Source: Anaerolineae bacterium (GTDB taxonomy: Bacteria > Chloroflexota > Anaerolineae > Anaerolineales > Anaerolineaceae). Taken from it: 64,000 nucleotides of DNA. Within the stretch, counting starts at the first letter, position 1. Every line of letters begins with the position of its first letter. A program made the position numbers and the translations under genes. The notes beneath the pieces were generated by a model that was given only the letters and a program-made list of their open reading frames with translations, had not been told where the DNA came from and made no database searches. This document shows positions 496-47,868 of this stretch, piece by piece. Where the stretch lies: positions 2,475-66,474 of the forward strand of contig JABLXK010000017.1 of the NCBI GenBank assembly GCA_013178095.1, in the 5' to 3' direction.

Positions 496-551
496 AAATG
501 CGTCCCAGACGCGATACATTTAGAAGTCTGAAAAAAAATCGGAGGTTTTAC

Positions 552-1484: not shown

Positions 1485-1504
1485 AATCTTTAATCGGAAA
1501 TTTC

Positions 1505-1539
1505 GAAGACCTGAATTGCAGCACAGTTCAGGTCTTTTT
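1505..1539 (+). terminator. Rho-independent terminator after nucleoside hydrolase copy 1
   Basis: AAGACCTGAA / TTCAGGTCTT 10-bp stem followed by a T-run. Confidence 0.6.
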
Positions 1540-1631
1540 CATCCCGGCCATATTTTGAGTTGGCATTCAAAGGATAGGCGGATAGAATGCTAAGTTTCGC
1601 TAAATAAATAATCATTAATAAGAGGAGAGAA

Positions 1632-8192: not shown

Positions 8193-10160
<1,968 letters not shown>

Positions 10161-10180
10161 TTCTTCTCCCGTTAGTGTAA

Positions 10181-10206
10181 AAGACGCTATTTACGGCGTC
10201 TTTTTT
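10181..10206 (+). terminator. Rho-independent terminator after gyrB
   Basis: AAGACGC / GCGTCTT stem followed by T6. Confidence 0.55.
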
Positions 10207-10274
10207 ATATCAGGTTTTTCAAAATTAATCCAAAACTTGACTTTATTTTATGAAAACAGCCCACCTGGTCACAA

Positions 10275-10309
10275 ATAAAAGAAACCGCTGCCCGATCTCG
10301 GGCAGCGGT
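10275..10309 (-). terminator. Rho-independent terminator after htrA
   Basis: ACCGCTGCCCGA / TCGGGCAGCGGT perfect inverted repeat. On the minus strand it is followed by TTTCTTTTATTT. Confidence 0.65.
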
Positions 10310-10329
10310 CCAGGGAAAGAAGGAGGAGA

Positions 10330-14808: not shown

Positions 14809-17448
14809 TTAAACCAGCTCCAACAGCCGGGCTTTTTCGATCAATTCGTGGCGGGTATGCACATCCAGCTTACGGTGAATGCTTTTGATATGGGTTCTAA
14901 CGGTGCTATAGGCAATGAATAAATCCGCCGAGATTTGCGGTCCTTTCCTGCCTTGCACGAGCATCTTAAGGATTTCGATTTCACGCTCGCTGAGCGGTTC
15001 GGGCAGGATACTGGTTGGAATTTTCTTGCGCTCCCCGCTAACCGCGCTGGCGCTGCGCAGCAGCCGCATAATAAAAGCGGGCGATTCGGCGGAAAGTTCC
15101 GGCAGCAATTTCAACACCTGCGGATTCTCGTCCAGGAATGCGCGCTGGTATTCCTCCGGCGCGGCGATGTGGATGGCGCGCTTGAGGCATTCCAACGCTT
15201 GCTGTTTCTTGCCGTTGTGATCCCAGATGACTGCCTGCAACAGTTTGATGGTGAGCAGCCAGCGGTAATACCCGCGCCGCGCGGCCTGTTTTTCCATTTC
15301 GCGCAGCCGGCGGGCAGCCTCATTGAAATCTTCCGTGCGGATCAGGTAGCGGGTATAGACCAGCATCATCTCCATGTTCAGGTAATCCGGTTTTTGAGTG
15401 AGCGCCGGTCCTTCGCGCCGCGCCCAGTGTTCCACCTGAAGCAAATTGCCCTGCAGCAGGTTCAGGTTGGCTTCCCAGGCGTTCAGCCAGCTCTCGTCGC
15501 TGAGCGTGGCGCTGCCTGCCAGCGATTGGGCGCGCTTGATCGATTCCAGCGCCCGGCCGGGTTCGCCGCCGGCCTGGTAGATTTGCGAGGCGTAATAATG
15601 GCAGAAAATCTGGTTCAGACCCACCCCGGCTTGATCGTTCAACGCCAGGGCTTTTTCGATGGATTCATAAGCCGCGTCCAGGCGGTTGGCTTCAAAGTTC
15701 AGGCGGGCGATCCAGGCATGGATGCCGCCCAGCGCGGGATCTGCCGCGTCGCTGCTGCGCGCAACCGCTTTTTGGCAAAGGTCCAGCGCTTCCCCCCGGC
15801 GTCCATTGAAAAACAGTGCGGCTGCCAGCGAGTTGATAATGGCGTAGGTGAAGGTTTTTCCGCCTACCGATCTGCCGATGCGCAAGGCCTCATAGAGCGT
15901 CTCGATCGACTTGCCGATGTGATCGATGCGTTTCTGGGTTTCTGCCTGCGCCCATAAAGCCATCAGATTCCAGGCGCTGCGGTTCTTGGGCAGCAGTTTC
16001 TGCGCGATTTTTGCTTCCTTCAGGGCGCTATCGTAGTGGTGCGCATACATCACCTGAATAAACGCACGCAGCGCGCCCAGCTTGCCCAAGGTGACTTGCA
16101 GGGGGCCGGCCTCGTCGCGCTTTTTCGCGCGTGAAACAGTCCTGATTAAATCTTCAGCGCGCTCGGTCAACACCTGCGCTTGGACAAAATCCCCTTTCAA
16201 AGCGTCAATCCAACCCTGGTAAACCAGCAATTCCGGCCTGGACTGGAATCCGTTTCCGCTCCATTTACCCAGCCAATCTGCAAGGCTTGTTAAATCGCCC
16301 TCCAGAATGGCATGCTCGCAGGCGGGTTCGATGATCTCCAGAGCGCTGGATTCGTCGCCGGACCGCAACCCGTAAGCCACCGCCTCGCGCAAAAGACCTT
16401 GCTGCTGGAACCAGCGGGATGTCCTCCAAAAGGTCATTTGTTTTTCCTGCGGATCGCATTTGGCGTCCAGGAATTCCCGGAACAGCGGATGATATCCGCA
16501 CCAGCCGGGTTGTTCCTGATTGGGGAAACAGAAGAGGTGATTCCCAATCAGAGTGTCGATATGATTTTGCGCATTGCGGCTATGAATGACGGCTGCGCAC
16601 AAAGGCGCGCAAAAAGAATCCAGTGCGGCGGTTTTTACCATGAATTCCTGCAATGCCGCATTTTCTTTGGAAAATACTTCCTCTTCAAAGTACGCGCTCA
16701 TAAAGCGCAGCGCCCCGTTGAGGCGGGCGGACAAACTTCCGGCGTCGTTGGGTAGCGGGCTGCCGAGTTGATCGATTGCCAGCCGCAGCCCTGCGACCCA
16801 ACCTTGCGTTTTCTGCTGGAGGATCTCCAGATTTTCCGGCGGGATTGGTTGGTTGTTATTCTTGCGCTCGATGAATGAACGGGTTTCATTCAGATTGAAA
16901 CGCAGATCGCCTTCGTCTAATTCGACCAGTTGATTGGATGCGCGCAGGCGCGAAACCGCCAGAGCGGGATTTTTGCGGGAGATCAACACGATCCCGTACT
17001 GGGGTGGCAATTGTTCCAGAAGATTTTCCAGCAGGTTCAATACGGCGCGGCTGCGAATACTTTCAAATCGGTCGAAAATTAAAAGCGTGGTTTTTCCCGA
17101 ATGATGAACACTTTGCAGGATACGATCGACTGCGCCCTTTGGTTCGGATGCATGCGCGGATTCCGGGATGGCGCCGTCCGCCCTTTGAGAAACGAGATAT
17201 GCAAAATTGTCCGGGTCGTCGTCGCCGCTGTCCAGGTTGAACCAGTGATGATCGATGCCGATTTGCTGCAGCCAGGCATGCACCAGGCTGGTTTTACCGT
17301 AACCCGCCGCGGCGGTCAGCAGGTACAGGCGCGCTTTCCGTTCCAGCCCGTTTGTCAGAGCCACCAACAACCGCGGACGCGCCACCAGATCATCGGGCAG
17401 ATGCGCGGGATGATATTTATTGTAAGGAATCGGCGTGTTCGATTTCAT
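14809..17448 (-). CDS. MalT-like LuxR-family transcriptional regulator (STAND NTPase, TPR-like repeats, C-terminal HTH)
   Basis: Walker A LLTAAAGYGKTSL. Long helical-repeat middle region. C-terminal LSEREIEILKMLVQGRKGPQISADLFIAYSTVRTHIKSIHRKL LuxR HTH. Confidence 0.85.
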   Translation of the reverse strand: MKSNTPIPYNKYHPAHLPDDLVARPRLLVALTNGLERKARLYLLTAAAGYGKTSLVHAWLQQIGIDHHWFNLDSGDDDPDNFAYLVSQRADGAIPESAHASEPKGAVDRILQSVHHSGKTTLLIFDRFESIRSRAVLNLLENLLEQLPPQYGIVLISRKNPALAVSRLRASNQLVELDEGDLRFNLNETRSFIERKNNNQPIPPENLEILQQKTQGWVAGLRLAIDQLGSPLPNDAGSLSARLNGALRFMSAYFEEEVFSKENAALQEFMVKTAALDSFCAPLCAAVIHSRNAQNHIDTLIGNHLFCFPNQEQPGWCGYHPLFREFLDAKCDPQEKQMTFWRTSRWFQQQGLLREAVAYGLRSGDESSALEIIEPACEHAILEGDLTSLADWLGKWSGNGFQSRPELLVYQGWIDALKGDFVQAQVLTERAEDLIRTVSRAKKRDEAGPLQVTLGKLGALRAFIQVMYAHHYDSALKEAKIAQKLLPKNRSAWNLMALWAQAETQKRIDHIGKSIETLYEALRIGRSVGGKTFTYAIINSLAAALFFNGRRGEALDLCQKAVARSSDAADPALGGIHAWIARLNFEANRLDAAYESIEKALALNDQAGVGLNQIFCHYYASQIYQAGGEPGRALESIKRAQSLAGSATLSDESWLNAWEANLNLLQGNLLQVEHWARREGPALTQKPDYLNMEMMLVYTRYLIRTEDFNEAARRLREMEKQAARRGYYRWLLTIKLLQAVIWDHNGKKQQALECLKRAIHIAAPEEYQRAFLDENPQVLKLLPELSAESPAFIMRLLRSASAVSGERKKIPTSILPEPLSEREIEILKMLVQGRKGPQISADLFIAYSTVRTHIKSIHRKLDVHTRHELIEKARLLELV

Positions 17449-17686
17449 CCTGCCCTTCCGGAAAATGACCGTTTCGCGTTGTAGCTTCCTTTGGCTGCGT
17501 GTTCATATCGTATTGCTTGTATCATATCATTGCTGGACGAATTTCCGAAGAACCAACCGATTACCCTTTCTCTCGCAAGATTCGTCAAAAGCCGCTGAAT
17601 TCGCCTCCGGATTATCTTCAAATTCCACAATAATCGTCAAGAGGTTATCGGATTACGAATTTATCATATTGAAAAAAGGAGCTGAA

Positions 17687-18169
17687 ATGGAAGGACGTTA
17701 TTTTATCGAACCGATCGGCAAAATCAAAGCAAACGAGGAGGGATTCCTGATTGAAATCGATGCGGCATATCGGGCAGCCTTGACCAACCTCGATCAATTC
17801 AGCCACGCGCTGATCTTCTGGTGGGGGCATCAAAATGACCGCGCGGATTTGCGCCAAACGACCATGGTCGACCTGCCCTATGCGCGTGGAACACGCGCCG
17901 GCGTTTTCGCCTGCCGCTCGCAGATCCGGCCGAATCCGATCGCCGTGACCACCTGCGCGCTGCTTCACGTGGATGTGGCGAACGGCATTGTGGTTGTGCC
18001 CTGGATCGATGCTTTCGACGGGACGCCGCTGATTGACATCAAACCCTTCATGCCGACTTCGGACCGCGTGCGCGATTTTCATGTCGCGCCCTGGGCGAAA
18101 GATTGGCCGGAATGGATGGAAGACGCGGGTTTGTATTTTCAGGAACATGCTGTCGATTTTGGCGATTGA
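17687..18169 (+). CDS. TrmO/TsaA-like (YaeB family) SAM-dependent methyltransferase
   Basis: FIEPIGKIK ... GVFACRSQIRPNPIAVT ... VPWIDAFDGTPLIDIKPFMP typical of the TrmO N-terminal domain. AAGGAG RBS before ATG 17687. Confidence 0.75.
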   Translation: MEGRYFIEPIGKIKANEEGFLIEIDAAYRAALTNLDQFSHALIFWWGHQNDRADLRQTTMVDLPYARGTRAGVFACRSQIRPNPIAVTTCALLHVDVANGIVVVPWIDAFDGTPLIDIKPFMPTSDRVRDFHVAPWAKDWPEWMEDAGLYFQEHAVDFGD

Positions 18170-26757: not shown

Positions 26758-27972
26758 TTATTTGAGCGCGGCGGCAGCTTTGCGCAGCGCGTCGGCTTTG
26801 TCAGTGCGCTCCCAGGTCAGATCCAGGTCATCGCGGCCGAAATGGCCGTACGCGGCGACCTTGCGGAAGATTGGTTTGCGTAAATCGAGATCGCGGATGA
26901 TCGCGCCGGGGCGCAGATCGAAGTGTTCCTGCACCAGTTTGGCGATCTGATCGTCGGGTATCTGCCCGGTGCCGAATGTTTCCACGTTCACGCTCACCGG
27001 ATGCGCCACGCCGATTGCGTAAGCTACCTGGATCTCGCAGCGTTCCGCCAGGCCGGCAGCTACCACGTTCTTGGCCGCCCACCGCGCGGCGTAAGCTGCC
27101 GAACGGTCGACCTTGGTCGGGTCTTTACCGGAGAAAGCGCCGCCGCCGTGGCGGCCCATGCCGCCGTAAGTGTCCACGATGATCTTGCGTCCGGTAACGC
27201 CGGAATCGCCCATCGGGCCGCCGGTGACGAAACGGCCGGTCGGATTGACGTGGAAGATGGTCTGGTCGTCCAGCATCTCCGCCGGGATGACCGGTTTGAT
27301 GACGTGTTCGATGACGGCTTTACGGATTTCTTCCTGTGAAACCTCCGGAGCATGCTGGGTGCTGATGACCACGGTGTCCACGCGTACGGGTTTCCCAAAG
27401 CGGTATTCCACGGTTACCTGGCTTTTTCCATCCGGGCGCAGCCAGGCCAGCGTGCCGTCTTTGCGCACTTCTGCCAGGCGGCGGGTGAGCTTCTGCGCCA
27501 GGTAGATGGGCATGGGCATCAGGGCGGGGGTCTCGTTGCAGGCAAAACCGAACATCATGCCCTGGTCGCCGGCGCCGATGGCTTCCACTTCCGCGTCTGT
27601 CATCTGGCCGGATTTGGCTTCCAGGGCCTTGTCGACGCCCATGGCGATATCGCCGGATTGTTTTGCCAGAGCCACCAGCACGGCGCAGGTGTTGTAATCG
27701 AAACCTTTATCGGTATTGTCGTAGCCGATTTCTTTGATTGTGTTGCGCACGATTTCATCGTAGTTTAAATTGGCCTGGGTGGTGATCTCACCCAGCAGCA
27801 TGACAAAACCGGTTTTGGTGGCCGATTCACACGCCACGCGCGAACGGGGATCCTGCGCCAGGCAGGCATCCAGCACGGCATCGCTGACCTGATCGCATAA
27901 TTTGTCCGGGTGGCCTTCGGTCACCGATTCGGATGTGAACAGGTACTTGGCTGATTTCATCATTGTTTCCAT
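26758..27972 (-). CDS. metK: S-adenosylmethionine synthetase
   Basis: [65 protein letters not shown] 10 nt upstream of the start. Confidence 0.97.
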
Positions 27973-28051: not shown

Positions 28052-28175
28052 CTCTCATCTTCCAGAATTACCTTCTGCCGGAATTGGCACCAACGTGCAG
28101 CCGCATCGAATGCGAATGCCGCCAGGTTGCCGAGGTTTCACAGGGCCGATCCCTCCACCTCTCTGGATAAGAGAG
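28052..28175 (-). promoter_or_regulatory. SAM-I (S-box) riboswitch aptamer controlling metK
   Basis: The minus strand reads CTCTTATCCAGAGAGGTGGAGGGATCGGCCCTGTGAAACCTCGGCAACC...GGTGCCAATTCCGGCAGAAGG...GGAAGATGAGAG. This matches the conserved S-box core (CUCUUAUC.AGAG.GG..GAGGGA..GGCCC..UGAA.CC..GCAACC ... GGUGCCAAUUCC ... AGAUGAGAG). Confidence 0.93.
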
Positions 28176-30653: not shown

Positions 30654-31139
30654 ATGGATATTAAAACAGTCGTCATCGAAAAACCTGAATCCATCAATTT
30701 CATCTTCGGCCAGTCGCATTTTATTAAAACAGTCGAGGATGTCCATGAAGCGCTGGTCAATACCGTCCCGGGCATCAAATTCGGGGTGGCATTTTGCGAA
30801 GCTTCCGGTAAGTGCCTGGTGCGCTGGTCCGGAACGGACGAGGCTATGATTGAGCTGGCGAAGAAGAACGCCTATGCAGTAGGCGCCGGGCATAGCTTTT
30901 TTGTCTTTCTGGGGGAAGGTTTTTTCCCATTGAACGTGCTTAATACTCTCAAGAATGTTCCCGAAATTTGCCACATATTCTGCGCCACGGCCAACCCTGT
31001 CCAGGTGATCGTTGCCGACCTGGGCGGAAGCCGCGCCGTGCTGGGGGTGGCAGATGGGGAGCAGCCTAAAGGTATTGAAGGCGACGAGGATATTGCCTGG
31101 CGCAAGAACTTCCTACGCCAGATTGGATATAAAGCTTAA
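30654..31139 (+). CDS. Adenosine-specific-kinase family (Pfam Adenosine_kin/DUF355-like) protein
   Basis: About 160 aa. FGQSHFIKTVEDVHEALV...PGIKFGVAF ... AGHSFFVFL ... NVPEICHIFCATANP pattern, as I recall it for this family. Confidence 0.7.
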   Translation: MDIKTVVIEKPESINFIFGQSHFIKTVEDVHEALVNTVPGIKFGVAFCEASGKCLVRWSGTDEAMIELAKKNAYAVGAGHSFFVFLGEGFFPLNVLNTLKNVPEICHIFCATANPVQVIVADLGGSRAVLGVADGEQPKGIEGDEDIAWRKNFLRQIGYKA

Positions 31140-37899: not shown

Positions 37900-38634
37900 C
37901 TACACCGGCGAGAATTTCGTGCCGATGTCGTAATAATCCTCGTTCTCGGCCTTCTTCAGCCGATTTACTACCCAGTATGTCGCAGGCGTGAACAGCACCT
38001 CGACGCTTACCTTGAAAATGTAATTGGTCAGCACCAGGCTGGCGAAAGACACCCAGGGGAACACGCCCGCCAGCGTGGCGATCAGGATGAACACCAGTGA
38101 GTCCACGCCTTCGCCTACCAGCGTGCTGCCGATGGTGCGTGTCCACAGCCATTTGCCTTTGGTGAGGATTTTCATCACCGCCAGGATGACCGAGTTGCTG
38201 AACTCGCCCATCAGGTAGGCCAGCAGGCTGGCGGCCACCAGTCCGAAGGAAGTCATTCCGCCCAGGATGGCGTCGTAAGCGGTGTCGCCGGCGTAACCCT
38301 GCCAGGCAGCCTCGCCCGGCAGCGCGCGCACCAGCGCCAGCACCAGGGCGCTCAAGGCCAGCGCGCCGAAACCGCTCCAGATCACGCGCCGCGAGCGCTT
38401 GAAGCCGTAAACTTCGGTGAGCACGTCGCCGAAGATGTAACTGATGGGGAAGAGCAGTGTGCCGCCGTCGAAGGCCAGGCGCACCCCGAAGAGCGAGAAC
38501 CCCCAATCGATGATCTTGGCGGAGGAGGCGATGTTGCTGGTGATCAACACGGTCACGAACAGCGCCATCACCAGGTCCAGGTAACGGTAGCTGCGTTCTT
38601 TTTCCGGTTTAAGTTCCTGTATCTTTTCAGCCAT
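37900..38634 (-). CDS. yhhQ: Queuosine-precursor transporter (YhhQ/DUF165, VUT family)
   Basis: YRYLDLVMALFVTVLITSNIASSK-type start, LFPISYIFGDVLTEVYGF, polytopic. ATG 38634 preferred over the listed TTG 38655. Confidence 0.85.
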   Translation of the reverse strand: MAEKIQELKPEKERSYRYLDLVMALFVTVLITSNIASSAKIIDWGFSLFGVRLAFDGGTLLFPISYIFGDVLTEVYGFKRSRRVIWSGFGALALSALVLALVRALPGEAAWQGYAGDTAYDAILGGMTSFGLVAASLLAYLMGEFSNSVILAVMKILTKGKWLWTRTIGSTLVGEGVDSLVFILIATLAGVFPWVSFASLVLTNYIFKVSVEVLFTPATYWVVNRLKKAENEDYYDIGTKFSPV

Positions 38635-38674
38635 AGGTATAATTTCAGGTAGCAAGGATTATAAACGATACGAG

Positions 38675-39430
38675 ATGAGCACCCAGCGCTTTTTCCTCCC
38701 CGATGATTGTTTTCAGCCGAATCTCGTGACTTTTCCAGAGACGGTGCAGAACCAGATCAACCGCGTGCTGCGCCTGCGCGAGGGCGAGGAGGTGATCGCG
38801 CTGGACGGGCACGGCCTGCAATACCGCCTGCGCCTGGAGCAGAATGCCGCAGGGCTTTTCCAGGGAATAATCCTTTCAAAAGAAGAAAATCCGGCCGAGC
38901 CGGCCGTCCACTTGACCCTTTACATATCCCTGACCCAGCGCGAGAAGTTTGAACTCATCCTGCAAAAAGGCAGCGAAGTTGGGGTGGCGGCCTTTCAGCC
39001 CTTCATCTCCTCACGCTCGTTGATCCAGTGCGGCGATTCCTTTAACAAAAAACGCGAGCGCTGGGAAAGCATCCTGCGCGAAGCGGCCGAGCAGTGTGGG
39101 CGCGGGCGCATCCCGCAATTGCTGCCACCCTTGAGCCTGACTGAGGCGGTGAAAGTCGCTGCTGCCCGGCATGCCTTGAATCTGGCGGCTTGGGAGGACG
39201 AGCGGCAGGTCGGCTTGGGCAGTGCGCTGGTGGGATTCGATGGCAAAGGAACTTTGGGGTTGTTCGTCGGACCGGAAGGCGGCTTCGACGCTTCTGAAAC
39301 CGGGCGCATGCGCGCGGCGGGCATGCGCGTTTTTTCGCTGGGGCGGCGCATCCTGCGCATGGAAACGGCCGCCATGCTGGCGCCTGCGCTGGTGCTGTAT
39401 CAACTGGGGGAAATGAATCCGCGGGATTGA
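38675..39430 (+). CDS. rsmE: 16S rRNA (uracil1498-N3)-methyltransferase RsmE
   Basis: QRFFLP ... NRVLRLREGEEV N-terminal PUA-like part. C-terminal SPOUT knot LFVGPEGGF ... SLGRRILRMETAA. Confidence 0.9.
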   Translation: MSTQRFFLPDDCFQPNLVTFPETVQNQINRVLRLREGEEVIALDGHGLQYRLRLEQNAAGLFQGIILSKEENPAEPAVHLTLYISLTQREKFELILQKGSEVGVAAFQPFISSRSLIQCGDSFNKKRERWESILREAAEQCGRGRIPQLLPPLSLTEAVKVAAARHALNLAAWEDERQVGLGSALVGFDGKGTLGLFVGPEGGFDASETGRMRAAGMRVFSLGRRILRMETAAMLAPALVLYQLGEMNPRD

Positions 39431-39454
39431 CTGTGGCTTTGGCAGACTGCCGGA

Positions 39455-40519
39455 TTAAAGACTATCTGCGTTGACTTCCTGCAGGAAAATCTCCACCTGC
39501 TGCAGATACCATGCCGGTTCGCCGATGTGGATGCCATGGCTGGAATCGATGAAGGCATAGCGCAGGTTCTTGACCAAAGATTTGATCTGATCCACGTCCT
39601 GTGAATCCATGGCGCCCAGCAATCCCCAGTAGGCGTGGCGTGACCAATGCGCCTGCATCAGCAGCATGGGACACTTGACCTTTTTGAGCGCGGCCAGCGG
39701 ATCAAAATCCCGGCTGAGGCGGCCGTCGATGGTGGCTTTGGAAAAGTCCACATCGTATTCCATGAAGAATTTCACTCCCACGCGCATCTCAAACGGCAAA
39801 AAGGGCACGTCATAGGGCTGATTGGGTTTCAGGCGGCGGTTGACCGCGTAAAGCGCCATCAGGATTTTTAATACCGCGGGCGGGACCATCAGCAGCTCTT
39901 CCTGCCCTTCTTTGGGCGCGCCGGAATTGGCTAAGTAAGCCTCCAGGTTGGGCCCGGTTGGAGAGCCTAGGTTGTCGATAGCCACCTGGAACATGCGCCG
40001 CATGTACCTCTCTTCAGTGATGCGCGGATAAATGGAGGAGAACATGGGCGGATCCTCGGAAATAACCGCTCTGACCCACTCGGGGGCGTAAGCCCCCAGC
40101 CAGACCGCCAGCACGCCGCCGGAGGAAAGTCCGGAGACGATGGCCGGTTCGCCGATCACCTGTGCGATGAATTGCTTCAGGTCATCACCGCAGATATTGT
40201 AAGAATACTGTCCCGGCGTGCGCGTGGATCGGCCATGCCCGCGCAGGTCGACCGAGAAGACGTGGTATTTCCTGGCCAGTTCGGGCATGACCGACTTATA
40301 GCCCTGCCAGGATTCCATCTGCCCCGGAATTAACAGAAAAGGCAGCCCATTTTTCGGCCCCTCCACGTAATTCAGGGTAATGTTGTTGATGACGCATTGC
40401 TTTTCGCTGAATCCCTGCGGGGTGCCGGCCACGCTGATCTTGTGAGGCACGAAAAAGACCACCAGCCAGAACAGGATGAAGATGATCAGGTTGATTCCCA
40501 GGGTTGTCCAGATATTCAT
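39455..40519 (-). CDS. Alpha/beta-fold hydrolase with N-terminal membrane anchor
   Basis: N-terminal TM helix. GLSSGG nucleophile elbow (GxSxG). Late SSHGIH. Confidence 0.8.
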   Translation of the reverse strand: MNIWTTLGINLIIFILFWLVVFFVPHKISVAGTPQGFSEKQCVINNITLNYVEGPKNGLPFLLIPGQMESWQGYKSVMPELARKYHVFSVDLRGHGRSTRTPGQYSYNICGDDLKQFIAQVIGEPAIVSGLSSGGVLAVWLGAYAPEWVRAVISEDPPMFSSIYPRITEERYMRRMFQVAIDNLGSPTGPNLEAYLANSGAPKEGQEELLMVPPAVLKILMALYAVNRRLKPNQPYDVPFLPFEMRVGVKFFMEYDVDFSKATIDGRLSRDFDPLAALKKVKCPMLLMQAHWSRHAYWGLLGAMDSQDVDQIKSLVKNLRYAFIDSSHGIHIGEPAWYLQQVEIFLQEVNADSL

Positions 40520-40580
40520 TTCTATACCCTCTTGTTGACTTCATTATAAAGCCCTTTGGATAGCACCCAAGCGGGGGAAT

Positions 40581-42038
40581 TTAAAACAACCGCGTCGGCA
40601 GCAGGTTCCTCAGGCGATTTTCCAGCACCTTGGCGCGCCCCAGGTTGCGGCCGAGCGCGTCGCGCACCGCCACCACCTCACCCCGCAAATCCGGGCCGGC
40701 GGCGTAGCCGCGCAGGTCCTCGCCGCGCATCCAGGCGGCCAGGTGTTCGTCCTCCAAAATCAGGATATGACGTGTGAAGCGGTCGCCGAAGCGGCTGACG
40801 AATTCGTGCGAGGGCTGCCAGCCATCCGGCAGGGCTTTGCCCAGCGGCATGCCGCTGCTCAGCCAGGGTAATGCAGGAAAGCGCGCGTTGAGCGCCTTGC
40901 CAATCAGATAAAATTCCCCCCCGATCTCGGCGATCTGCAGGTCGTTTTCCGCCATCAATCGCTCCATTTCCAGGCCATACTGCCCGCTGATGTAATCGAC
41001 CATGCCGCGCGTTTCCACCGGCAGGGGAATCTTCATCTGCCGCGGGCGGGCGGCGTGTGGGTTGAAAGCGGAAGTTGCTGCGGGCAGGCCGGCGGTCTTG
41101 GTCAGGCGCGCGGCGAAGAAACCGGCGGTGTTGAACAGGTGCGGCCACAGGCGCGCGGCTTTGCGTACGTCCTTGGGGAAGGTTTTGCTTTCAAACACTT
41201 CCAATCCCGGCGCGGGCTGGGGCAGCCGGCTGCTGATGTCCTCGACGGCAAAACAGCCGGGGAATTGCTCCAGCAAAGCGGCCAGCACGCCCTCGTCTTC
41301 CTGCGGGGTGAGCGTGCAGGTGCTGTAAACCACCTGCCCGCCAACCTTGACTGCCCGCAAGGCGCTTTCCAGCAGGCGCGCCTGGCGCTCGGCCAGCGCT
41401 TCCACCTCGGTGAGGGTGATGCTGCGCGCCTTGTGTGATTCGCTGGCACGCATGCCCTGCATGGAGCAGGGCGCATCTAATAAAACCGCATCGAATGTCT
41501 CGGGATAGTGCGCCCCGAACCATTCGCCCGGCAGGCAGGTAACCGCCTGGTTGATGGCGCCCCAGGTGCCCAGCACAATGCGCAGCGCGGAGATGCGCCC
41601 GCGCGAAGCGTCGTTGGCCACGATAAAGCCGCGGTCTTGTATACGGTCGGCCAGATGGATGGTCTTGCCGCCGGGGGAGGCGGCCATATCCAGGACGAGA
41701 GGGTGATTGGTATGGCTGAAATCAAAAAGCTCGGCCGGCAGCATGGAAGCAGCCTCCTGGATGTAGTAATACCCCAGGCGGTGTTCGATGGTGCTGCTGG
41801 GCGCGATGCGCGCTTCCTTGATCCAGTAACCGCTGGTGCTGTAAGGTACGGGATCATAGCGCCAGCCATACAGATCAGCCCATTTGCGCATGGCAACATC
41901 CGGGTCGGACTTGAGCGCGTTGACGCGCAGCGAAAGATCCAGCGGCTGCCCGCGCAGCTCCTGCAGGCGCGCGTACAGCGCCGGGTCGGCTTGCGCCAGC
42001 CAGTCGAAGGTGTAAGCGGGCGGGATCGTTTTAGCCAT
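40581..42038 (-). CDS. rsmF: 16S rRNA m5C methyltransferase, RsmF (YebU)-like NOL1/NOP2/Sun family
   Basis: 485 aa, co-linear with E. coli RsmF as I recall it: YIQEAASMLPAELF, LDMAASPGGKT, FDAVLLDAPCS, VYSTCTL, GFFAARLTKT, plus the RsmF-type C-terminal extension ending ...LRNLLPTRLF. Confidence 0.8.
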   Translation of the reverse strand: MAKTIPPAYTFDWLAQADPALYARLQELRGQPLDLSLRVNALKSDPDVAMRKWADLYGWRYDPVPYSTSGYWIKEARIAPSSTIEHRLGYYYIQEAASMLPAELFDFSHTNHPLVLDMAASPGGKTIHLADRIQDRGFIVANDASRGRISALRIVLGTWGAINQAVTCLPGEWFGAHYPETFDAVLLDAPCSMQGMRASESHKARSITLTEVEALAERQARLLESALRAVKVGGQVVYSTCTLTPQEDEGVLAALLEQFPGCFAVEDISSRLPQPAPGLEVFESKTFPKDVRKAARLWPHLFNTAGFFAARLTKTAGLPAATSAFNPHAARPRQMKIPLPVETRGMVDYISGQYGLEMERLMAENDLQIAEIGGEFYLIGKALNARFPALPWLSSGMPLGKALPDGWQPSHEFVSRFGDRFTRHILILEDEHLAAWMRGEDLRGYAAGPDLRGEVVAVRDALGRNLGRAKVLENRLRNLLPTRLF

Positions 42039-42852
42039 GCCGTTTCATCCAGAACACCGTCTCGCCGGGGAAATCCAGTTCGCCGCGCGCTTCCCATTCC
42101 GCGGGGTTGAGGTTATCCGCCACCAACCCGCGCATGCGTTCGCGCAGGTCGCGCTTGCCGTCCAGGCTGCGCCGTGGCAGCGAAACGAACAGGTATTTCA
42201 CTTTCAGTGCGGACCACAAGGCGCGGTTGCAGCCCTTGCGGCGCTTTTCCAGGCGGTGGGCTTCTTTGAACAAGAACGCAGCGTCGGCTTCCACTTGCGG
42301 TGGCCGCACCAGAATATCGCGCACCTCGGCCAGCGCTTCTTTTCCGCTCAAACGCAAGAAATCGGTGATCAGTGCCACGCGCGGCGGATGGATATCGTAG
42401 GCGTAATAACGCGCGCCGGACGGCAAGCCAATCCAGGGCAGGGCGAAAGGGTTCAACCCGCAGGCCAAATCCAGCACGGATGCTGGCTGCCCGCAGATTG
42501 CGAAAATCTCTTTATAGAAGTCTTCCAGATAAACCAGGCGTTCGCGCGTGGAATCGTGCTGCTGCAAGAAAGCGCGGCAGGTGTCTTTTACCGCATCGGG
42601 TCCGCTGCTGAAGGCCGCTTGCAGTTCCTGCGCGGCCTGCGCGTAATCCAGGTCGCCCAGGTAGGGCGCCATCACGTTGTGCAGCTTGGCGCGCGCGCTT
42701 TTCAGCGCCTCGGCCGGTTTCTTGTAACGCGATAATTCCAGAGCCAGCAGGTCGCGCAGGGTTTCCTCGGGCAGCTCCAGGCCTTTATAGGTCTTGCCCG
42801 CGCGCAGCTGCGCCATCAACCCTTCCAGATCGCTGCTCTTTTGCGGGCTCAT
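42031..42852 (-). CDS. FmrO-family (ArmA/Rmt/Sgm-type, 16S rRNA G1405-N7 class) methyltransferase homologue, copy B
   Basis: HDSTRERLVYLEDFYKEIF, LDLACGLNPFALPW, ARYYAYDIH, FLFKEAHRLEKRRKG, LFVSLPRRSLDGKRD. ATG 42852 forms an ATGA overlap with copy A. Its stop overlaps the rsmF start by 8 nt. Confidence 0.78.
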   Translation of the reverse strand: MSPQKSSDLEGLMAQLRAGKTYKGLELPEETLRDLLALELSRYKKPAEALKSARAKLHNVMAPYLGDLDYAQAAQELQAAFSSGPDAVKDTCRAFLQQHDSTRERLVYLEDFYKEIFAICGQPASVLDLACGLNPFALPWIGLPSGARYYAYDIHPPRVALITDFLRLSGKEALAEVRDILVRPPQVEADAAFLFKEAHRLEKRRKGCNRALWSALKVKYLFVSLPRRSLDGKRDLRERMRGLVADNLNPAEWEARGELDFPGETVFWMKRHG

Positions 42853-43661
42853 TTTTCCACCAGGTAAGCCAGTTCGCTGGGAAAGTCGAAGCGCGTGACC
42901 TTCCACTTTTTATCGGCGGTCAGGGCTTCGAACTGGGCGGAGTAGGTTTGGCGCATGCCCTTGGATTTGCCGCCCAGGCTGCGGATGGGGTAGCTGGCTA
43001 AAATGTACATAGCGGGAATGTTTTCCAGCATTTCCTGCGCGCACCCTTTTTCCAATTGTTCCAGGCAGGGCAGGCTTTTCAGCAGCAGGGCCAATTGCAC
43101 AGGCTTGCCTATGGTATAGGAAAATACATCGGCGCTGGTCAGCCCGGCATGCAGGCCGCAGTGCGTCAGGAAGGCGTTGTCGAAATCGATCAGGTCGCTG
43201 AAGATGTCGCAGCCGCCGTAACGCGCGCCGCTCGCCAACGGCATCCAGGGCAGCGCCAGCGGATTCAGTCCGCAGGCCAGGTCGGCCAGCGATTCCAGCG
43301 GCGCGAGCGAAGCCAGCGTCTCCCTGAAAAAATCTTCCAGAATGGGCAGGCGTTCGGCCGTGGAGCTGTGCGCCTGCATGACTTTCAGGCAGAAAGCGCG
43401 CACGCCCTCGTCGGCGGGGTCGCCGGGCAGGTTTTCCAGCTCGGTTTTCCATTGTTTGTAACGCGGAGCCAGTTTAAAGTAAGCCGCGCCCACCTGGTGC
43501 AGCTTGGCGCTGACTTCCTTGATTGCTTCCCTGGGCTTGCGCCCCTTGGCCAGCTCGCGTTCGGCAATCTGCATGGCAAGGCCGGGCAGGATGGCGTTGT
43601 ACTTGGGCTTGGACAGCACGGCGGAAACAACTTCCTCGATCAGCGGGTTGTGTTCGTTCAT
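42849..43661 (-). CDS. FmrO-family (ArmA/Rmt/Sgm-type, 16S rRNA G1405-N7 class) methyltransferase homologue, copy A
   Basis: HSSTAERLPILEDFFRETL, ADLACGLNPLALPW, ARYGGCDIF, LLLKSLPCLEQLEKG, ILASYPIRSLGGKSKGM. ATGA overlap with the upstream TGT-like gene. Confidence 0.78.
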   Translation of the reverse strand: MNEHNPLIEEVVSAVLSKPKYNAILPGLAMQIAERELAKGRKPREAIKEVSAKLHQVGAAYFKLAPRYKQWKTELENLPGDPADEGVRAFCLKVMQAHSSTAERLPILEDFFRETLASLAPLESLADLACGLNPLALPWMPLASGARYGGCDIFSDLIDFDNAFLTHCGLHAGLTSADVFSYTIGKPVQLALLLKSLPCLEQLEKGCAQEMLENIPAMYILASYPIRSLGGKSKGMRQTYSAQFEALTADKKWKVTRFDFPSELAYLVEK

Positions 43662-44779
43662 GGCAGGTAAGGGCGCAGCCGCTCCATCAGGCGCGCCATG
43701 AAGTGCAGGTTGTGCTGCGTGGAGAGCTGCTGGTAGAGGCTGTCGTTGAGTTTGTGCAGGTGGCGCAGGTAGCCGATGGAGTAACGGCGGCAGACGGGGC
43801 AGTCACAGCCTTCTTCGATGGGTTGGCTGGATTTAATATAGCGTTCGTCATGCGCATAGACGTAGCCGAACCAGTCATCCTTCTCAAGCAGTGCGGCTTT
43901 GTCCGGCAGGTAGTTGAAGCGGTACAGGCGCCCGTGGCGGGCGTCGCGCGTTGGCATGGCGCTGTCGAACAACCCATAACCCTGCGCAGCGCAGCGCGCC
44001 ACGTAGGGCGGGTGGCCGATGCCGAGTGCGTGCAGCGGGAACTCCGCCGGGATCAATTCTCGCAGGAGGAAGACCATATCCTCCACCAGGTTGCCCTGGT
44101 TGTCCAGCGGCCAGCCGCCATAGCCATAGCCGTCGAAACCGATCTCCAGCAACTGCTCGGCGCAGTGCCGGCGCAATTCGTAGGAATTACCGCCCTGCAC
44201 CACGGCGAACAGTTTGGGCCTGCGCTCCTGCGCTAGGCGTTTTTCGTCCAGCAGGCGATCGAATTCCATGCGGCAGCGCTTGGCCCAGCGCACGGTGCGT
44301 TCCACGGAGGCTTCCTGCTGCGCCATGTCGTCGTCGACGTGCGTGCAGTCGTCCAGGCAGAACAGCAGGTCTGAGCCGAAACCGAGCTGCAGTTGCATGC
44401 ACTTTTCGGGGGTGAGCTGGTACTTGCGCTGGCCGTCCTCGGGCTTGAAAACCAGCCCGTTATCGGTGAACTGGCCGAAGCGCGGACCCTGGCGGATGAG
44501 CGAATAGGCCTGGAATCCGCCCGAATCGGTGAAGATGATGCCCTCCCAGCCGGTCATGGCGTGTAAGCCGCCCAGCGACTTGACTGTAGTGGCGCCGGGT
44601 TTTTGCATCAGGTGGAAGGTGTTCATCATCATGGCGCGGATGCCGCACTGCGCCGTTTCCTCGGCAGCCAGCCCGCGCACCTGCCCGAAAGTGGCATCCG
44701 GCAGGAATTGCGGGAATTCCAGCATTCCATGATTAAAAGCCAAGCGTAATGGATAGGTCATACGCTTGAATTGTATCAT
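43658..44779 (-). CDS. tRNA-guanine transglycosylase (TGT) family protein, divergent
   Basis: TDSGGFQ, LDDCT, FAVVQGG, GYGYGGW, ALGIGHP, LFDSAMPTRDARHG and the Zn site CDCPVCRRYSIGYLRHL. Confidence 0.8.
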   Translation of the reverse strand: MIQFKRMTYPLRLAFNHGMLEFPQFLPDATFGQVRGLAAEETAQCGIRAMMMNTFHLMQKPGATTVKSLGGLHAMTGWEGIIFTDSGGFQAYSLIRQGPRFGQFTDNGLVFKPEDGQRKYQLTPEKCMQLQLGFGSDLLFCLDDCTHVDDDMAQQEASVERTVRWAKRCRMEFDRLLDEKRLAQERRPKLFAVVQGGNSYELRRHCAEQLLEIGFDGYGYGGWPLDNQGNLVEDMVFLLRELIPAEFPLHALGIGHPPYVARCAAQGYGLFDSAMPTRDARHGRLYRFNYLPDKAALLEKDDWFGYVYAHDERYIKSSQPIEEGCDCPVCRRYSIGYLRHLHKLNDSLYQQLSTQHNLHFMARLMERLRPYLP

Positions 44780-44794
44780 CCCGCTTAAACGGGT

Positions 44795-45730
44795 TCAGGA
44801 AAGTACGCTTAGAGCTTGCAGGGTGATCCAGCGCTGGCTGCTGTCGCCCTGCGCCAGCAGCGGCCAGGTGCGCTGTTGGAAGGGGCTGCCGCCGCTCCAG
44901 GTGCCGTTGTGATTGCGCTGCTCGCGCAGCCAGCCCAGCGCGCGCCGCGCCTGTGGGGATTCCAGCGCGTTCAGTTCTTTGGCGATGCGCAGTACAAATA
45001 AAGTATCTGCGTGATAAAAGAGCGGGAAACTGGTTTTGGACCACAGTTCGTGGATCTTTTCCACGTGGGGATAATCGGCCTCCAGCAGGTCGTGATCCTC
45101 CAGCAGGAATTTCAACCCCGCGTGGATGGCTTGCCGGATGGATGAGTTTCTTTTTTCTTCGGGGAGGAGCGCCAGCCCGAACAGGTCGCGCGCTATGCCC
45201 CAGGCGCAGGGCAGGCCGTTGTTGTATTGGCAGCGGCTGAGATTTTGCAGGTCGCGCGTCACGTAGTCCAGGATGAATTCAACGCTCTCCACTTGGGCCT
45301 GGCAATAAAGCTGATAACGCAGCACGTTGCCCCACAAACAACCCCAAAAGGACTCTTTTCTCCCCTGTAAGCGGATGTCTTTTTCCATGCATTCGCGCAT
45401 GAAAGCTGCGCCCTTTTGCATAGCGGGGTGCTGCGGATCGATGCCCAGTTCGCTCAACAGCAGCATGCTCCAGTGGCTGCTGCGGTATTTGGGGGAATAA
45501 TAATGGCGGGGATTTTGCCAGTAGCCTTCCGGCTGCTGCTTTTCAAGAATGTGTAATACGGGATTAGTGCTGGCAATCAAACGCCTGGCTGCTTGCGTTT
45601 CCGCGTCCTCTTCCGGCTTTCCCAAAATGCGGGTCAGGGTCAGGTAGCGGATGGAGGGCGTGGGGCTCTCCAGCAGCCAGGCGATGGTTTTTGAATTGTC
45701 GCTGGTGTTTACTTGTTTATTTTCACCCAT
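44795..45730 (-). CDS. Hypothetical protein, possibly alpha/alpha-toroid (prenyltransferase/terpene-cyclase-like repeat) fold
   Basis: 311 aa. Repeated aromatic-rich helical hairpin pattern (EGYWQN ... SHWSMLLLSELG ... NGTWSGG). Stop lies 15 nt upstream of the TGT-like start. Confidence 0.45.
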   Translation of the reverse strand: MGENKQVNTSDNSKTIAWLLESPTPSIRYLTLTRILGKPEEDAETQAARRLIASTNPVLHILEKQQPEGYWQNPRHYYSPKYRSSHWSMLLLSELGIDPQHPAMQKGAAFMRECMEKDIRLQGRKESFWGCLWGNVLRYQLYCQAQVESVEFILDYVTRDLQNLSRCQYNNGLPCAWGIARDLFGLALLPEEKRNSSIRQAIHAGLKFLLEDHDLLEADYPHVEKIHELWSKTSFPLFYHADTLFVLRIAKELNALESPQARRALGWLREQRNHNGTWSGGSPFQQRTWPLLAQGDSSQRWITLQALSVLS

Positions 45731-45742
45731 GCAAGCATTATA

Positions 45743-46240
45743 TTATGAGCGCTTGCGGAACAGGGCGGAAAAAAGGGTGATTACGCCGATGCCGATCAGG
45801 AACAGCGGCCAGAGCGTGCCGACGCCCAAGTTGAGTCCGAAGGTACCGCCGAAGATGATGAAGCCCATTGCGCTGATAGCCATCAGCACCAGGCCGCCGC
45901 TGTCGAAGCGCGGATGTTCGCGCGAAAGCAGGCCGGCGATGATCACGCCCAGGCCGACAAAACCGGGGATGAGTGTCCAGATGTAAGCCCAGCTGGCCCA
46001 GTCGCCCGAGATGGCCTGGTAATAGAGAATGCCGCCGATGCCGCCCACGATGCAGCCGGGGATGGCCAGCCCGCCGGTGCGGGTCAGGATGGCAGCCAGC
46101 AAAAAGGCTGCGCCCACGCCGATCACGATAAAAGGCCAGTAAACGTAACCGAAGATATCCGGGTACATCTGCGTGACGAAGAAGAACCCGCCCAACAGGA
46201 TCAGCAGGATCCCCCATACAATGCCGTGTCGATTTTCCAT
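45743..46240 (-). CDS. Small polytopic membrane protein, function unknown
   Basis: Five or six Gly-rich hydrophobic segments. ATG 46240 (MENRHG) preferred. Stop lies 12 nt upstream of the next gene start. Confidence 0.6.
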   Translation of the reverse strand: MENRHGIVWGILLILLGGFFFVTQMYPDIFGYVYWPFIVIGVGAAFLLAAILTRTGGLAIPGCIVGGIGGILYYQAISGDWASWAYIWTLIPGFVGLGVIIAGLLSREHPRFDSGGLVLMAISAMGFIIFGGTFGLNLGVGTLWPLFLIGIGVITLFSALFRKRS

Positions 46241-46327
46241 GTTTCCTCCAGAAAAATGATTTCGAAATTTCATATCTACTTACGCAGGATTGGCATTTAG
46301 GTTGCTTCGAAGTTTTATTTGCCGTAG

Positions 46328-46555
46328 GTCGGGTTGGTGATCTTCCAACCCGACTAGAAGCTTTTCTGCAATTGTTTTTGCGCATCTGCCAAAGACGGCG
46401 CGGCAATCTCAAATTAATAGAACCACAGATACACTCGGATGAACACTAATAAAAAACCCTTCTGTATTTGCGAGCCGCGGAGCGGCGCGGCAATCTCAAC
46501 CACAGATAAATGAGTTATCGTAGGATGGCTTGGTGATCTTCCAACCCATCACCCT
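46328..46555. repeat. Cluster of three REP-like families in one spacer
   Basis: GTCGGGTTGG-TGATCTTC-CAACCCGAC (46328-46355), GACGGCGCGGCAATCTC (46395-46411), GAACCACAGATACACTCGGATGAACAC (46421-46447), GAGCGGCGCGGCAATCTCAACCACAGATAA (46481-46510), GGCTTGGTGATCTTCCAACCC (46528-46548). Confidence 0.6.
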
Positions 46556-46604
46556 AATCCAGGTTCTTGAGCGTATTTAACTATGGATTTCTTTGTGATT
46601 CCCG

Positions 46605-46645
46605 TAAAAAACTCCGCAGGTTGCGCCTTGTCGAAACCTGCGGAG
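46605..46645 (-). terminator. Rho-independent terminator after the flavodiiron gene
   Basis: The minus strand reads CTCCGCAGGTT ... AACCTGCGGAG followed by T6. Confidence 0.7.
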
Positions 46646-46668
46646 CCAATCAAATTGTTGTCAGGAAA

Positions 46669-47868
46669 TTATCCTTCCAGAATCAGCTTCCCAAAGCGCT
46701 TTCCCATTTCGTAGGCTTCTTTCAGGTTCTCCTCGCGGGCTTGCCCGGCGAACTCGAGCGTTTCGCCCAGCTCCCAATTCATCTTTTCAAACTGATTCTT
46801 CAGGAAACGCACCGCTCCGCCGCCCCAGCCATAGCTGCCGAAATAGATCGCCTGTTTGTTGAACGCGCGCTTGATCTCGGCCATGTACAACACCAGTTGC
46901 ATGGTGGGGAACAGCGTGCCTTCGTAGGTCGGCGCGCCGATCACCACGCCCTGGTTTTTCCAGATGGAGGGCAGGATGTAGCTGACGGGCGTGGTGGTCA
47001 CGTCATGCGCGTCCACCGGCACGCCCGCGGCCTCCAGCCCGTTTTTCACAGATGCCACCATTTTTTCGGTGTTGCCGTACATCGAGCCGTGCAGCAGGGT
47101 CACGCCTTTCTCCGCCGGGCCTTTGCCGTAGCTCGACCAGCGCATGTACAGGTCCACGATGCGCCCCGGGTCTTTGCGCCATACCAACCCGTGCGAGGGC
47201 GCGACCATGCGCAGCGGAACGCCCGCCAGCTTTTCGCCGGCGTTCAACACCGGTTTGCTGAAGGCGGCCACGATGTTTGCGTAATAGCGCAGGGATTCCC
47301 CTTCGAAGTAGGCCAGGTCGGGGTACTCCTCGTCGAAAATGCCTTTTTCAGGGATGCCGTAACCGCCGAAAGCGTCGCACGAAAAGAGCGTCTGCGAAAC
47401 GGTTTCATAGGTTACCATCGTTTCCGGCCAGTGCACCATGGGCGCGCTGACGAAACGCAGCTTATGCCTGCCCAATTCCAGTTCCTCGCCGTCGCTCACC
47501 GCGCGGATGTTTTCCTTCAAACCGAAAAAATCATCCATCATCTTGACCGCTTTGGGTGTGCCCAGGATGACCGCCTGGGGCGCCAGTTCGCGGAAAGCAC
47601 GCAGCGCGCCGGAATGGTCCGGTTCCATGTGATTGACCACCAGATAATCGATACTGGCCGGGTCTACCAGCGCCTTGAGTTCGCCCAGGTATTCCTGCTG
47701 GAAGAGCTCTTTGCACAGGTCGATCAGCACGGTTTTCTCGTCGCGGATCAGGTAGGAGTTATATGTGATGCCTTCTTTTTCAATCGGCCAGAGTCCCTCA
47801 AACAGGCGGGTCCGGCGGTCGTGAATGCTGAGGCAGTAGATGTTCTCGCTGATTGGAGTCGGTTTCAT
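46669..47868 (-). CDS. Flavodiiron protein (FprA-type; MBL-like di-iron domain plus flavodoxin domain)
   Basis: NSYLIRDEKTVLIDL, VVNHMEPDHSGAL di-iron ligands. C-terminal flavodoxin-like VTLLHGSMYGNTEKM. Confidence 0.9.
   Translation of the reverse strand: MKPTPISENIYCLSIHDRRTRLFEGLWPIEKEGITYNSYLIRDEKTVLIDLCKELFQQEYLGELKALVDPASIDYLVVNHMEPDHSGALRAFRELAPQAVILGTPKAVKMMDDFFGLKENIRAVSDGEELELGRHKLRFVSAPMVHWPETMVTYETVSQTLFSCDAFGGYGIPEKGIFDEEYPDLAYFEGESLRYYANIVAAFSKPVLNAGEKLAGVPLRMVAPSHGLVWRKDPGRIVDLYMRWSSYGKGPAEKGVTLLHGSMYGNTEKMVASVKNGLEAAGVPVDAHDVTTTPVSYILPSIWKNQGVVIGAPTYEGTLFPTMQLVLYMAEIKRAFNKQAIYFGSYGWGGGAVRFLKNQFEKMNWELGETLEFAGQAREENLKEAYEMGKRFGKLILEG

Follow-up and report, generated by a model that had tools for sequence, protein, structure and literature searches.

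Introduction

We know of no source organism for the clinically acquired 16S ribosomal RNA (rRNA) methyltransferases that act on G1405. The acquired enzymes ArmA, RmtB, RmtC, RmtD, RmtE, RmtF and RmtG are encoded on plasmid segments bounded by IS91/ISCR elements, and a further described relative, Sgm of Micromonospora zionensis (3LCU/3LCV), is the product of a self-resistance gene of an antibiotic producer (PMC2896518). Here we describe two FmrO-family genes, A and B, that lie in tandem in a stretch of 64,000 nucleotides from an Anaerolineae bacterium (GCA_013178095.1, contig JABLXK010000017.1, positions 2,475 to 66,474), which as a whole is referred to below as the window. The two proteins share their Pfam family and critical residues with the acquired enzymes, at an identity of only 22-34%, and with Sgm they share the N1/N2 plus Rossmann architecture and the residues that bind S-adenosylmethionine (SAM); the KxLPCLE motif and the GxxSKGM loop are common to Sgm and A. 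Unlike Sgm, the pair lies outside any biosynthetic cluster, its inheritance is vertical across a whole class, Tgt-like and RsmF-like genes are coupled to it, and it includes a second paralogue. The window genes are chromosomal, in contrast to the acquired ones, and no acquired Arm/Rmt gene has a B-type partner. On balance, and with moderate confidence, we read the locus as a vertically inherited housekeeping operon that modifies the ribosomal decoding centre, in which A makes N7-methylguanosine at position 1405 (m7G1405) and B has been retargeted, rather than as an acquired or producer-type resistance determinant. The gene string consists of the following members:

42849..43661, minus strand: FmrO-family copy A, 270 amino acids, canonical type (Pfam FmrO, E-value 1.8e-46)
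42031..42852, minus strand: FmrO-family copy B, 273 amino acids, divergent Anaerolineae-specific paralogue (Pfam FmrO, E-value 3e-42)
43658..44779, minus strand: Tgt-like transglycosylase of the 'GGWPLD' clade (Pfam TGT, E-value 1.5e-88)
40581..42038, minus strand: RsmF-like 16S rRNA 5-methylcytosine methyltransferase, 485 amino acids (Pfam Methyltr_RsmF_N and Methyltr_RsmB-F)

Two FmrO-family paralogues of ancient origin

The original prediction, made from the letters of the window alone, had assigned both open reading frames (ORFs) to the FmrO family, and the profile search matched both far above the threshold of PF07091 (27 bits), with 159.1 bits for A and 145.3 bits for B, the match of B spanning only profile positions 11-219 of 255. 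Its positions and sizes for the two ORFs and the ATGA overlap between them proved accurate, the motif blocks that it quoted are all present, and the ArmA strings that it gave (HSSTNERV, LNDFY, DFGCGFNPLAL and FPIKSLSGKEKGM) agree with armA of the Klebsiella plasmid pYDC676. The best solved relative of A is Sgm (3lcu; 5.9e-46, 160 bits, residues 7-270) and that of B is RmtB (3.5e-27), while the identity between A and B is 34% over 240 residues (E-value 7e-36) and A is 69% identical to its ortholog in Pelolinea submarina. The AlphaFold2 model of B, with a predicted local distance difference test score of 92.7, matches the fold of Sgm best (template-modelling score, TM, 0.84), with RmtC, RmtB and RmtF as further top hits; the TM range of the superpositions on these four is 0.74-0.88. 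An N-terminal helical domain of two subdomains followed by a class I Rossmann domain at the C terminus is thus seen for B in the model and indicated for A by its end-to-end alignment with Sgm. Automatic database annotation names both window proteins as G1405 methyltransferases.

When one genome per GTDB species was scanned, more than 555 loci were found to encode a relative of the query, and in the best 80 of these, in which synteny was read, the order Tgt, A, (B), RsmF recurs. The taxa represented are Pelolinea, Anaerolinea, Bellilinea, Thermanaerothrix, Longilinea, Leptolinea, Brevefilum, Thermoflexus and Aggregatilineales. At the gene junctions of Anaerolineae loci, start and stop codons typically overlap by 4 or 8 nucleotides, and the Tgt-like gene stands upstream of A in essentially all of these loci. 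B lies at most about 4.5 kb from A in 49 of the 64 loci with enough sequence; the remaining 15 lineages have no adjacent B, and in some of them A is followed directly by RsmF. In most loci an RsmF-like gene comes after B, or after A in those that lack B, with an RsmE-like gene near it on the opposite strand in many Anaerolineae loci. A YhhQ-family gene also recurs beside the cluster, with 54-82% identity (mostly about 70%) among the other loci.

In a neighbour-joining tree, the A clade and the B clade are each monophyletic in 100 of 100 bootstraps and their internal branching is broadly congruent. A, B and Sgm are together split from RmtB, RmtC and RmtF (96 of 100 bootstraps), and A groups with Sgm in 64 of 100. 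The ratio of nonsynonymous to synonymous substitution rates (dN/dS) is 0.13-0.15 for A and 0.12-0.14 for B in the closest ortholog pairs, and 0.07-0.19 and 0.07-0.16, respectively, over all four pairs; the value of about 0.12-0.15 is alike for A, B and RsmF and denotes purifying selection. Separate clades with congruent branching, taken together with this selection, argue for an old duplication of which both copies are functional and have been inherited together. The earlier proposal of an ancient duplication kept as a coupled pair therefore stands, on the fully supported clades, the 49 paired loci and the ATGA overlap.

Conserved residues and predicted activities of the two copies

The structural work on RmtC provides a frame of reference for both paralogues, with K20 and R50 assigned to docking on the 30S subunit, H54 to the distortion of helix 44, Y60 and K204 to positioning of the base, S107, R111 and D160 to SAM binding, and T207, R211, the loop 237-246, R241 and M245 to contacts with helix 44 (PMC10288597; bioRxiv 10.1101/712810). 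We mapped these positions onto the orthologs of A (78) and of B (61). No substitution occurs at S107 or R111 in either set, D160 is Asp in 74 of the 78 A proteins (Glu in four) and in every B protein, and the motif-I Cys is kept in 75 of 78 and 60 of 61, respectively. K204 and H54 are found in 100% of A and B orthologs, and residue 60 is Tyr or Phe throughout. Within A, the HxSTxER motif, D134, G240, G244, M245 and Y249 are, like H54, Y60 (or Phe) and K204, invariant or nearly so, and R241 is Arg or Lys in 70 of 78; beside the KxLPCLE segment, the loop that A shares with Sgm has the form GGxxKGMxxxY. Since nearly every residue critical in RmtC is kept, A is probably a 16S rRNA m7G1405 methyltransferase.

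B retains K20 in 58 of its 61 orthologs, and Y21, H54, Y60, the HxSTxER motif, the motif I Asp (D134), D160 and K204 in all 61, with Arg or Lys at position 50 throughout; the cofactor site, the docking surface and the catalytic lysine are thus intact. The differences lie elsewhere. In all 61 proteins Pro207 is replaced by His and Cys208 by Arg, and an Arg stands at 212; the loop 237-246 is one residue shorter, with G244 gone, Y249 is lost, and M245 has become Leu in 52 of 61. This pattern fits an active methyltransferase that would occupy the same 30S surface with a different grip on helix 44. Because the invariant changes are concentrated in the elements that distort helix 44, the predicted target of B is most likely another nucleotide of the decoding centre, or a differently modified or assembled substrate, and the retained catalytic lysine suggests that the position methylated is probably again a guanine N7.

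A distinctive Tgt-like gene accompanies the family

The Tgt-like gene upstream of A, which the original prediction did not mention, is the most conserved partner of the FmrO family. Its product scores 297.6 against TIGR00430, short of the cut-off of 306.75, and keeps the catalytic Asp residues and the CxCxxC zinc motif. The substrate-pocket segment, GGLAVGE in bacterial enzymes, is replaced by GGWPLD, which is at least 95% conserved in 74 linked orthologs, and the clade further carries PDAT for PVGT and HALGIGHP for YLMGVGKP. In a library search that listed 150 representatives, GGWP or a close variant occurs in most of the first 50 or so, and proteins with the canonical GGL(A/S)VGE first appear, among the matches listed, at about 250 bits. 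As judged from these motifs, the GGWP-type Tgt is a discrete and diverse clade. The nearest named clusters with a canonical motif come from Binatia, Rokubacteria and Uhrbacteria, with none from Chloroflexi, and are uninformative as to a second, canonical tgt in Anaerolineae genomes.

The link between this clade and FmrO recurs in diverse metagenomic loci. When metagenomes were scanned with a varied set of FmrO proteins as seeds, 47 loci with enough sequence were obtained, spanning a guanine-plus-cytosine (GC) content of 0.41-0.73, and a Tgt gene lies immediately upstream of FmrO on the same strand in 41 of them; the GGWP motif is present in 40 of these 41 genes, and 26 of the 47 loci also contain RsmI. 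Fusion proteins are also found. P0245 (628 amino acids; locus L082, 8001-9887, seen in two NCBI contigs) joins a GGWP-type Tgt to FmrO, with an RsmI-like gene ahead of it, and P0301 is a second, partial Tgt-FmrO fusion. P0256 (710 amino acids; locus L083, 633-2765) joins RsmI, for which the TIGR00096 score is 212.9 bits against a cut-off of 167.9, to a GGWP-type Tgt and is followed by an overlapping FmrO gene (2758-3549). The protein encoded by the latter, a chromosomal-looking gene on a contig of 42% GC, shares 45.5% identity with RmtE along its entire length and is a possible lead to the RmtE lineage. FmrO proteins with a linked Tgt occur throughout the family tree, and two of them, one being this L083 protein, group with the acquired Rmt enzymes. 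An FmrO neighbour is absent, on the other hand, from four distant GGWP-type Tgt genes on short contigs, which indicates that the Tgt clade is independent of FmrO and weakens any model of two enzymes obligately working together.

The same gene is carried by mobile resistance loci. On the clinical plasmids pKP13f, p12100-NDM, 2964TF and pEc09 (loci L168, L169, L170 and L171), a GGWP-type tgt sits beside IS91-family elements, and the plasmid gene is found upstream of rmtD2 and of rmtG, in the latter case preceded in turn by rsmH, and ahead of rmtB2 with one gene in between, so that a progenitor operon was evidently mobilised as a block. For rmtG this setting is already published: an rsmH-tgt-rmtG-rsmL operon has been described, and the gene that precedes rmtG has been called a 'putative tRNA ribosyltransferase' (PMC9311965; PMC3904158). 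As in the window, the FmrO-family gene there is downstream of, and overlaps, a tgt-like gene, with genes for helix-44 methyltransferases on the flanks. The rmtG operon is, however, a mobilised Klebsiella fragment of unknown origin, whereas the window locus is native and chromosomal, has RsmF and RsmE instead of RsmH, and holds the additional copy B. The arrangement of a tgt-rmt operon is found in the window, with a GGWP-type tgt directly upstream of A on the same strand (ATGA), RsmF downstream and RsmE nearby.

What the Tgt-like protein does may be read in several ways, and a literature search for Tgt paralogues in Chloroflexi gave nothing relevant. The YhhQ family imports queuosine precursors, and the nearby YhhQ-type transporter would suit a Tgt-like protein that may be an ordinary transfer RNA (tRNA) enzyme with an altered base pocket. 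It may alternatively be a paralogue that works on the ribosome. In the Tgt of Zymomonas mobilis, a backbone NH of the Leu-Ala peptide presumably binds guanine N7, and it is this Leu-Ala that is replaced by Trp-Pro in the GGWP clade. Together with the near-obligate gene order, the Tgt-FmrO and RsmI-Tgt fusions and the nearby YhhQ-type gene, this replacement is the ground for a decidedly long shot, namely that the protein, rather than being the usual queuosine enzyme of tRNA, is a partner of FmrO on helix 44 of the 16S rRNA, for example exchanging guanine (possibly m7G1405, which its N7 methylation would activate) for an imported base of the 7-deazaguanine type, with B as a third component of an rRNA base-exchange pathway.

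Genomic setting of the gene string

On the minus strand the genes run in the order terpene-cyclase-like, Tgt-like, A, B, RsmF-like and alpha/beta hydrolase, and beyond the hydrolase lie a convergent RsmE-like gene and a transporter gene. The neighbours outside the four-gene string are:

38675..39430, plus strand: RsmE-like RNA methyltransferase (PF04452; Pfam Methyltrans_RNA, E-value 4.3e-41)
37900..38655, minus strand: Vut_1/YhhQ-family transporter (Pfam Vut_1, E-value 2.4e-46)
44795-45730, minus strand: weak squalene-hopene-cyclase-like repeat protein (terpene-cyclase-like), 311 amino acids

ATGA overlaps join the Tgt-like stop to the start of A and the stop of A to the start of B, and the end of B shares 8 nucleotides with the beginning of the RsmF-like gene (ATGGCTAA). 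The mechanical ORF list also holds a longer form of B, of 291 amino acids with a GTG start; we prefer the 273-residue ATG form, since it agrees with the median length of the orthologs and with the NCBI protein of the same metagenome-assembled genome (MAG), labelled Anaerolineae bacterium, to which B is 100% identical. The RsmF-like protein aligns over its full length with E. coli YebU/RsmF (2frx, 3.6e-52), and its NCBIfam RsmF score of 261.5 bits is under the cut-off. Promoter and terminator scans over 38500-47000 gave counts no higher than shuffled expectation and did not define a transcript; co-transcription of the Tgt-like, A, B and RsmF-like genes is what we infer from their overlaps. The terpene-cyclase-like gene lies 15 nucleotides upstream of the Tgt-like gene, a position that is conserved only in Pelolinea-type loci.

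The remainder of the window is core chromosome of a Pelolinea-like MAG, with gyrB, ftsK, metK, an HtrA-like trypsin/PDZ protease and ABC transporters among its genes and an even GC content throughout. Pfam scans of most large ORFs between 303 and 58559 showed no transposase, integrase or aminoglycoside pathway, which bears out the earlier statement that the pair lies outside a producer or mobile context. Horizontal acquisition was considered and rejected on the even composition, the congruent trees of A and B and the class-wide synteny. Rfam and tRNA scans of the window found only a SAM riboswitch and a tRNA-Val, both outside the operon; the riboswitch (87 bits; 28052-28173, minus strand) is upstream of metK (26758-27972, minus strand). 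Among other genes that deal with RNA or nucleosides are one with a TrmO-like tRNA methyltransferase domain (17435-18169, plus strand), an RNA-modification gene unlinked to the operon, two tandem inosine-uridine nucleoside hydrolase genes (303-2564, plus strand) and a gene for an adenosine-specific kinase (30654-31139, plus strand); the hydrolases and the kinase suggest nucleoside salvage.

Discussion

We propose the following mechanism for the locus. The GGWP-type Tgt-like gene, the two FmrO-family genes and the RsmF-like gene would be co-transcribed and translationally coupled. A, as a SAM-dependent 16S rRNA G1405-N7 methyltransferase, would act as RmtC does, its N-terminal domain docking on the surface formed by helices h24, h27, h44 and h45 of the 30S subunit and its loop distorting helix 44 and flipping out G1405, so that the conserved lysine and the aromatic residue could position N7 for methyl transfer. 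The duplication that produced B would be older than the diversification of Anaerolineae. B, active and docked on the same 30S surface with rebuilt helix-44 elements, would most likely methylate a different nucleotide of the decoding centre, or act on the substrate in another state. An incidental consequence of A would then be high-level resistance to 4,6-disubstituted deoxystreptamine aminoglycosides.

Several observations weigh against parts of this model. Both window proteins remain under the cut-off of 250 bits of the NCBIfam 'Rmt family' equivalog NF000466 (195.2 bits for A and 155.8 for B), as does the Tgt-fused homologue P0245 with 220; our guess is that this cut-off has been tuned to the clinically acquired enzymes. 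The A protein of the window has Ser at the position of RmtC R50, and its B protein has Thr at that of K20. B is dispensable in some lineages, as the 15 of 64 without an adjacent copy attest, and the boundaries of the operon are drawn only from overlaps and gaps. In the tree legend of Nosrati 2019 (bioRxiv 10.1101/712810), the Chloroflexi homologues are labelled simply as 'uncharacterized homologs'. The changes in B, too, could merely re-tune recognition of the same G1405, and the replacement of M245 by Leu, which also occurs in active homologues (PMC10288597), is evidently tolerated in the family. These last points lead to the reading that A and B are redundant isoenzymes, both producing m7G1405 and differing in expression, in temperature optimum or in the stage of ribosome assembly at which they act. 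The shared fold, and the presence of K204, Y60, H54 and the SAM site in both copies, are consistent with it. Redundancy is seldom maintained over a whole class, though, and the two copies are under equal purifying selection; moreover, the differences of B are invariant in all 61 orthologs and clustered in the RNA-distorting elements rather than scattered. We therefore regard redundancy as unlikely, if the strongest of the competitors to a retargeted B.

The original prediction had offered three options for the pair, of which neofunctionalisation of one copy is the best supported, as judged from the substitutions of B in its predicted helix-44-engaging elements. Another was a heteromeric enzyme with one degenerate subunit. 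In this form the idea was rejected, as neither copy has lost any of its SAM-binding or catalytic residues, purifying selection acts equally on the two, and B has its SAM site and catalytic lysine in 61 of 61 orthologs. A broader version, in which A and B form an obligate heteromer of a catalytic subunit and an RNA-binding or activating one, could draw on the common ATGA coupling of the two genes and on a Pelolinea MAG (locus L006, about 8001-9640) in which the A stop codon, a TAA that in relatives directly precedes the in-frame ATG of B, reads TTA (Leu), giving an in-frame A-B fusion of 547 amino acids. This fusion could be real or an assembly error, being a single MAG sequence. Neither copy has a degenerate SAM site, and in the only solved ribosome complex, that of RmtC on the 30S subunit (8GHU), a single enzyme molecule sits at helix 44, with no partner protein (PMC10288597). 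The genes are also separable: in six Bellilinea-type loci (L022, L037, L051, L063, L066 and L081) A and B are about 2.5-2.7 kb apart, and in L081, from Bellilinea caldifistulae, the locus whose ORFs were read, the gap is filled by a two-component system of a histidine kinase and a LuxR-type response regulator (9659-11417), so that the translational coupling of A and B is broken. With A also standing without an adjacent B in almost a quarter of the lineages, we hold an obligate heteromer to be improbable.

The third option was intrinsic high-level aminoglycoside resistance, which in its full form would have the pair kept by environmental exposure, the two copies covering different drug classes. 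All characterised members of the family confer resistance (PMC10288597; bioRxiv 10.1101/712810), and A is closest to the producer enzyme Sgm. Resistance is likely to be a predicted by-product of A, and to this extent the proposal survives; as the reason for retention it does not, given vertical, class-wide inheritance in a housekeeping operon for RNA modification and Pfam scans of the window that revealed no biosynthetic or mobile genes nearby. The cultured relatives of the window organism are, furthermore, strict anaerobes, and anaerobes take up aminoglycosides poorly. A primary role in resistance is consequently, in our view, about as improbable as an obligate heteromer.

The original prediction had stated that m7G1405 hinders methylation of C1407 by RsmF. 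Work on Sgm and RmtC has reported such a block (Cubrilo 2009 and Gutierrez 2012, as cited in PMC3923132), and the statement is sound for these two enzymes; it does not extend to ArmA, which interferes with RsmI at C1402 and not with RsmF (PMC3923132). The linkage of A and B to RsmF might thus be a matter of compatibility, of ordering or of compensation. We searched the available sequence of these lineages for a 16S rRNA in which helix 44 could be inspected and found none.

Some elements of this picture have precedents. The tgt-rmt synteny is known for rmtG (PMC9311965), and Chloroflexi homologues figure as 'uncharacterized' in one tree, whose legend is the only mention of them that we found in the literature. 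In the searchable literature we found no B subfamily with fixed changes in its RNA-engaging elements, and no account of the fusion proteins, of a Tgt-A-B-RsmF operon across the class or of how broadly Tgt and FmrO are linked.

The pair is real, ancient and functional, and its interest lies in the native role and the origin of a resistance family more than in resistance itself. In the window locus and its relatives the family is seen where it is native, in a housekeeping operon that is passed on vertically and also holds a special Tgt-like gene and further helix-44 methyltransferases. Pieces of this operon setting accompany rmtG, rmtD2 and rmtB2 on plasmids, which indicates concretely what to look for in progenitors of the acquired genes. 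The distribution of the genes suggests that m7G1405 is a normal modification of the ribosome in a whole bacterial class, and this would reframe both the supposed fitness cost of the mark and its interplay with RsmF, RsmI and RsmH. B, in turn, would represent a natural experiment in retargeting the FmrO fold, and, if it is true that B marks a different nucleotide, its specificity would be new among rRNA modifications and the resistance phenotype might be new as well.

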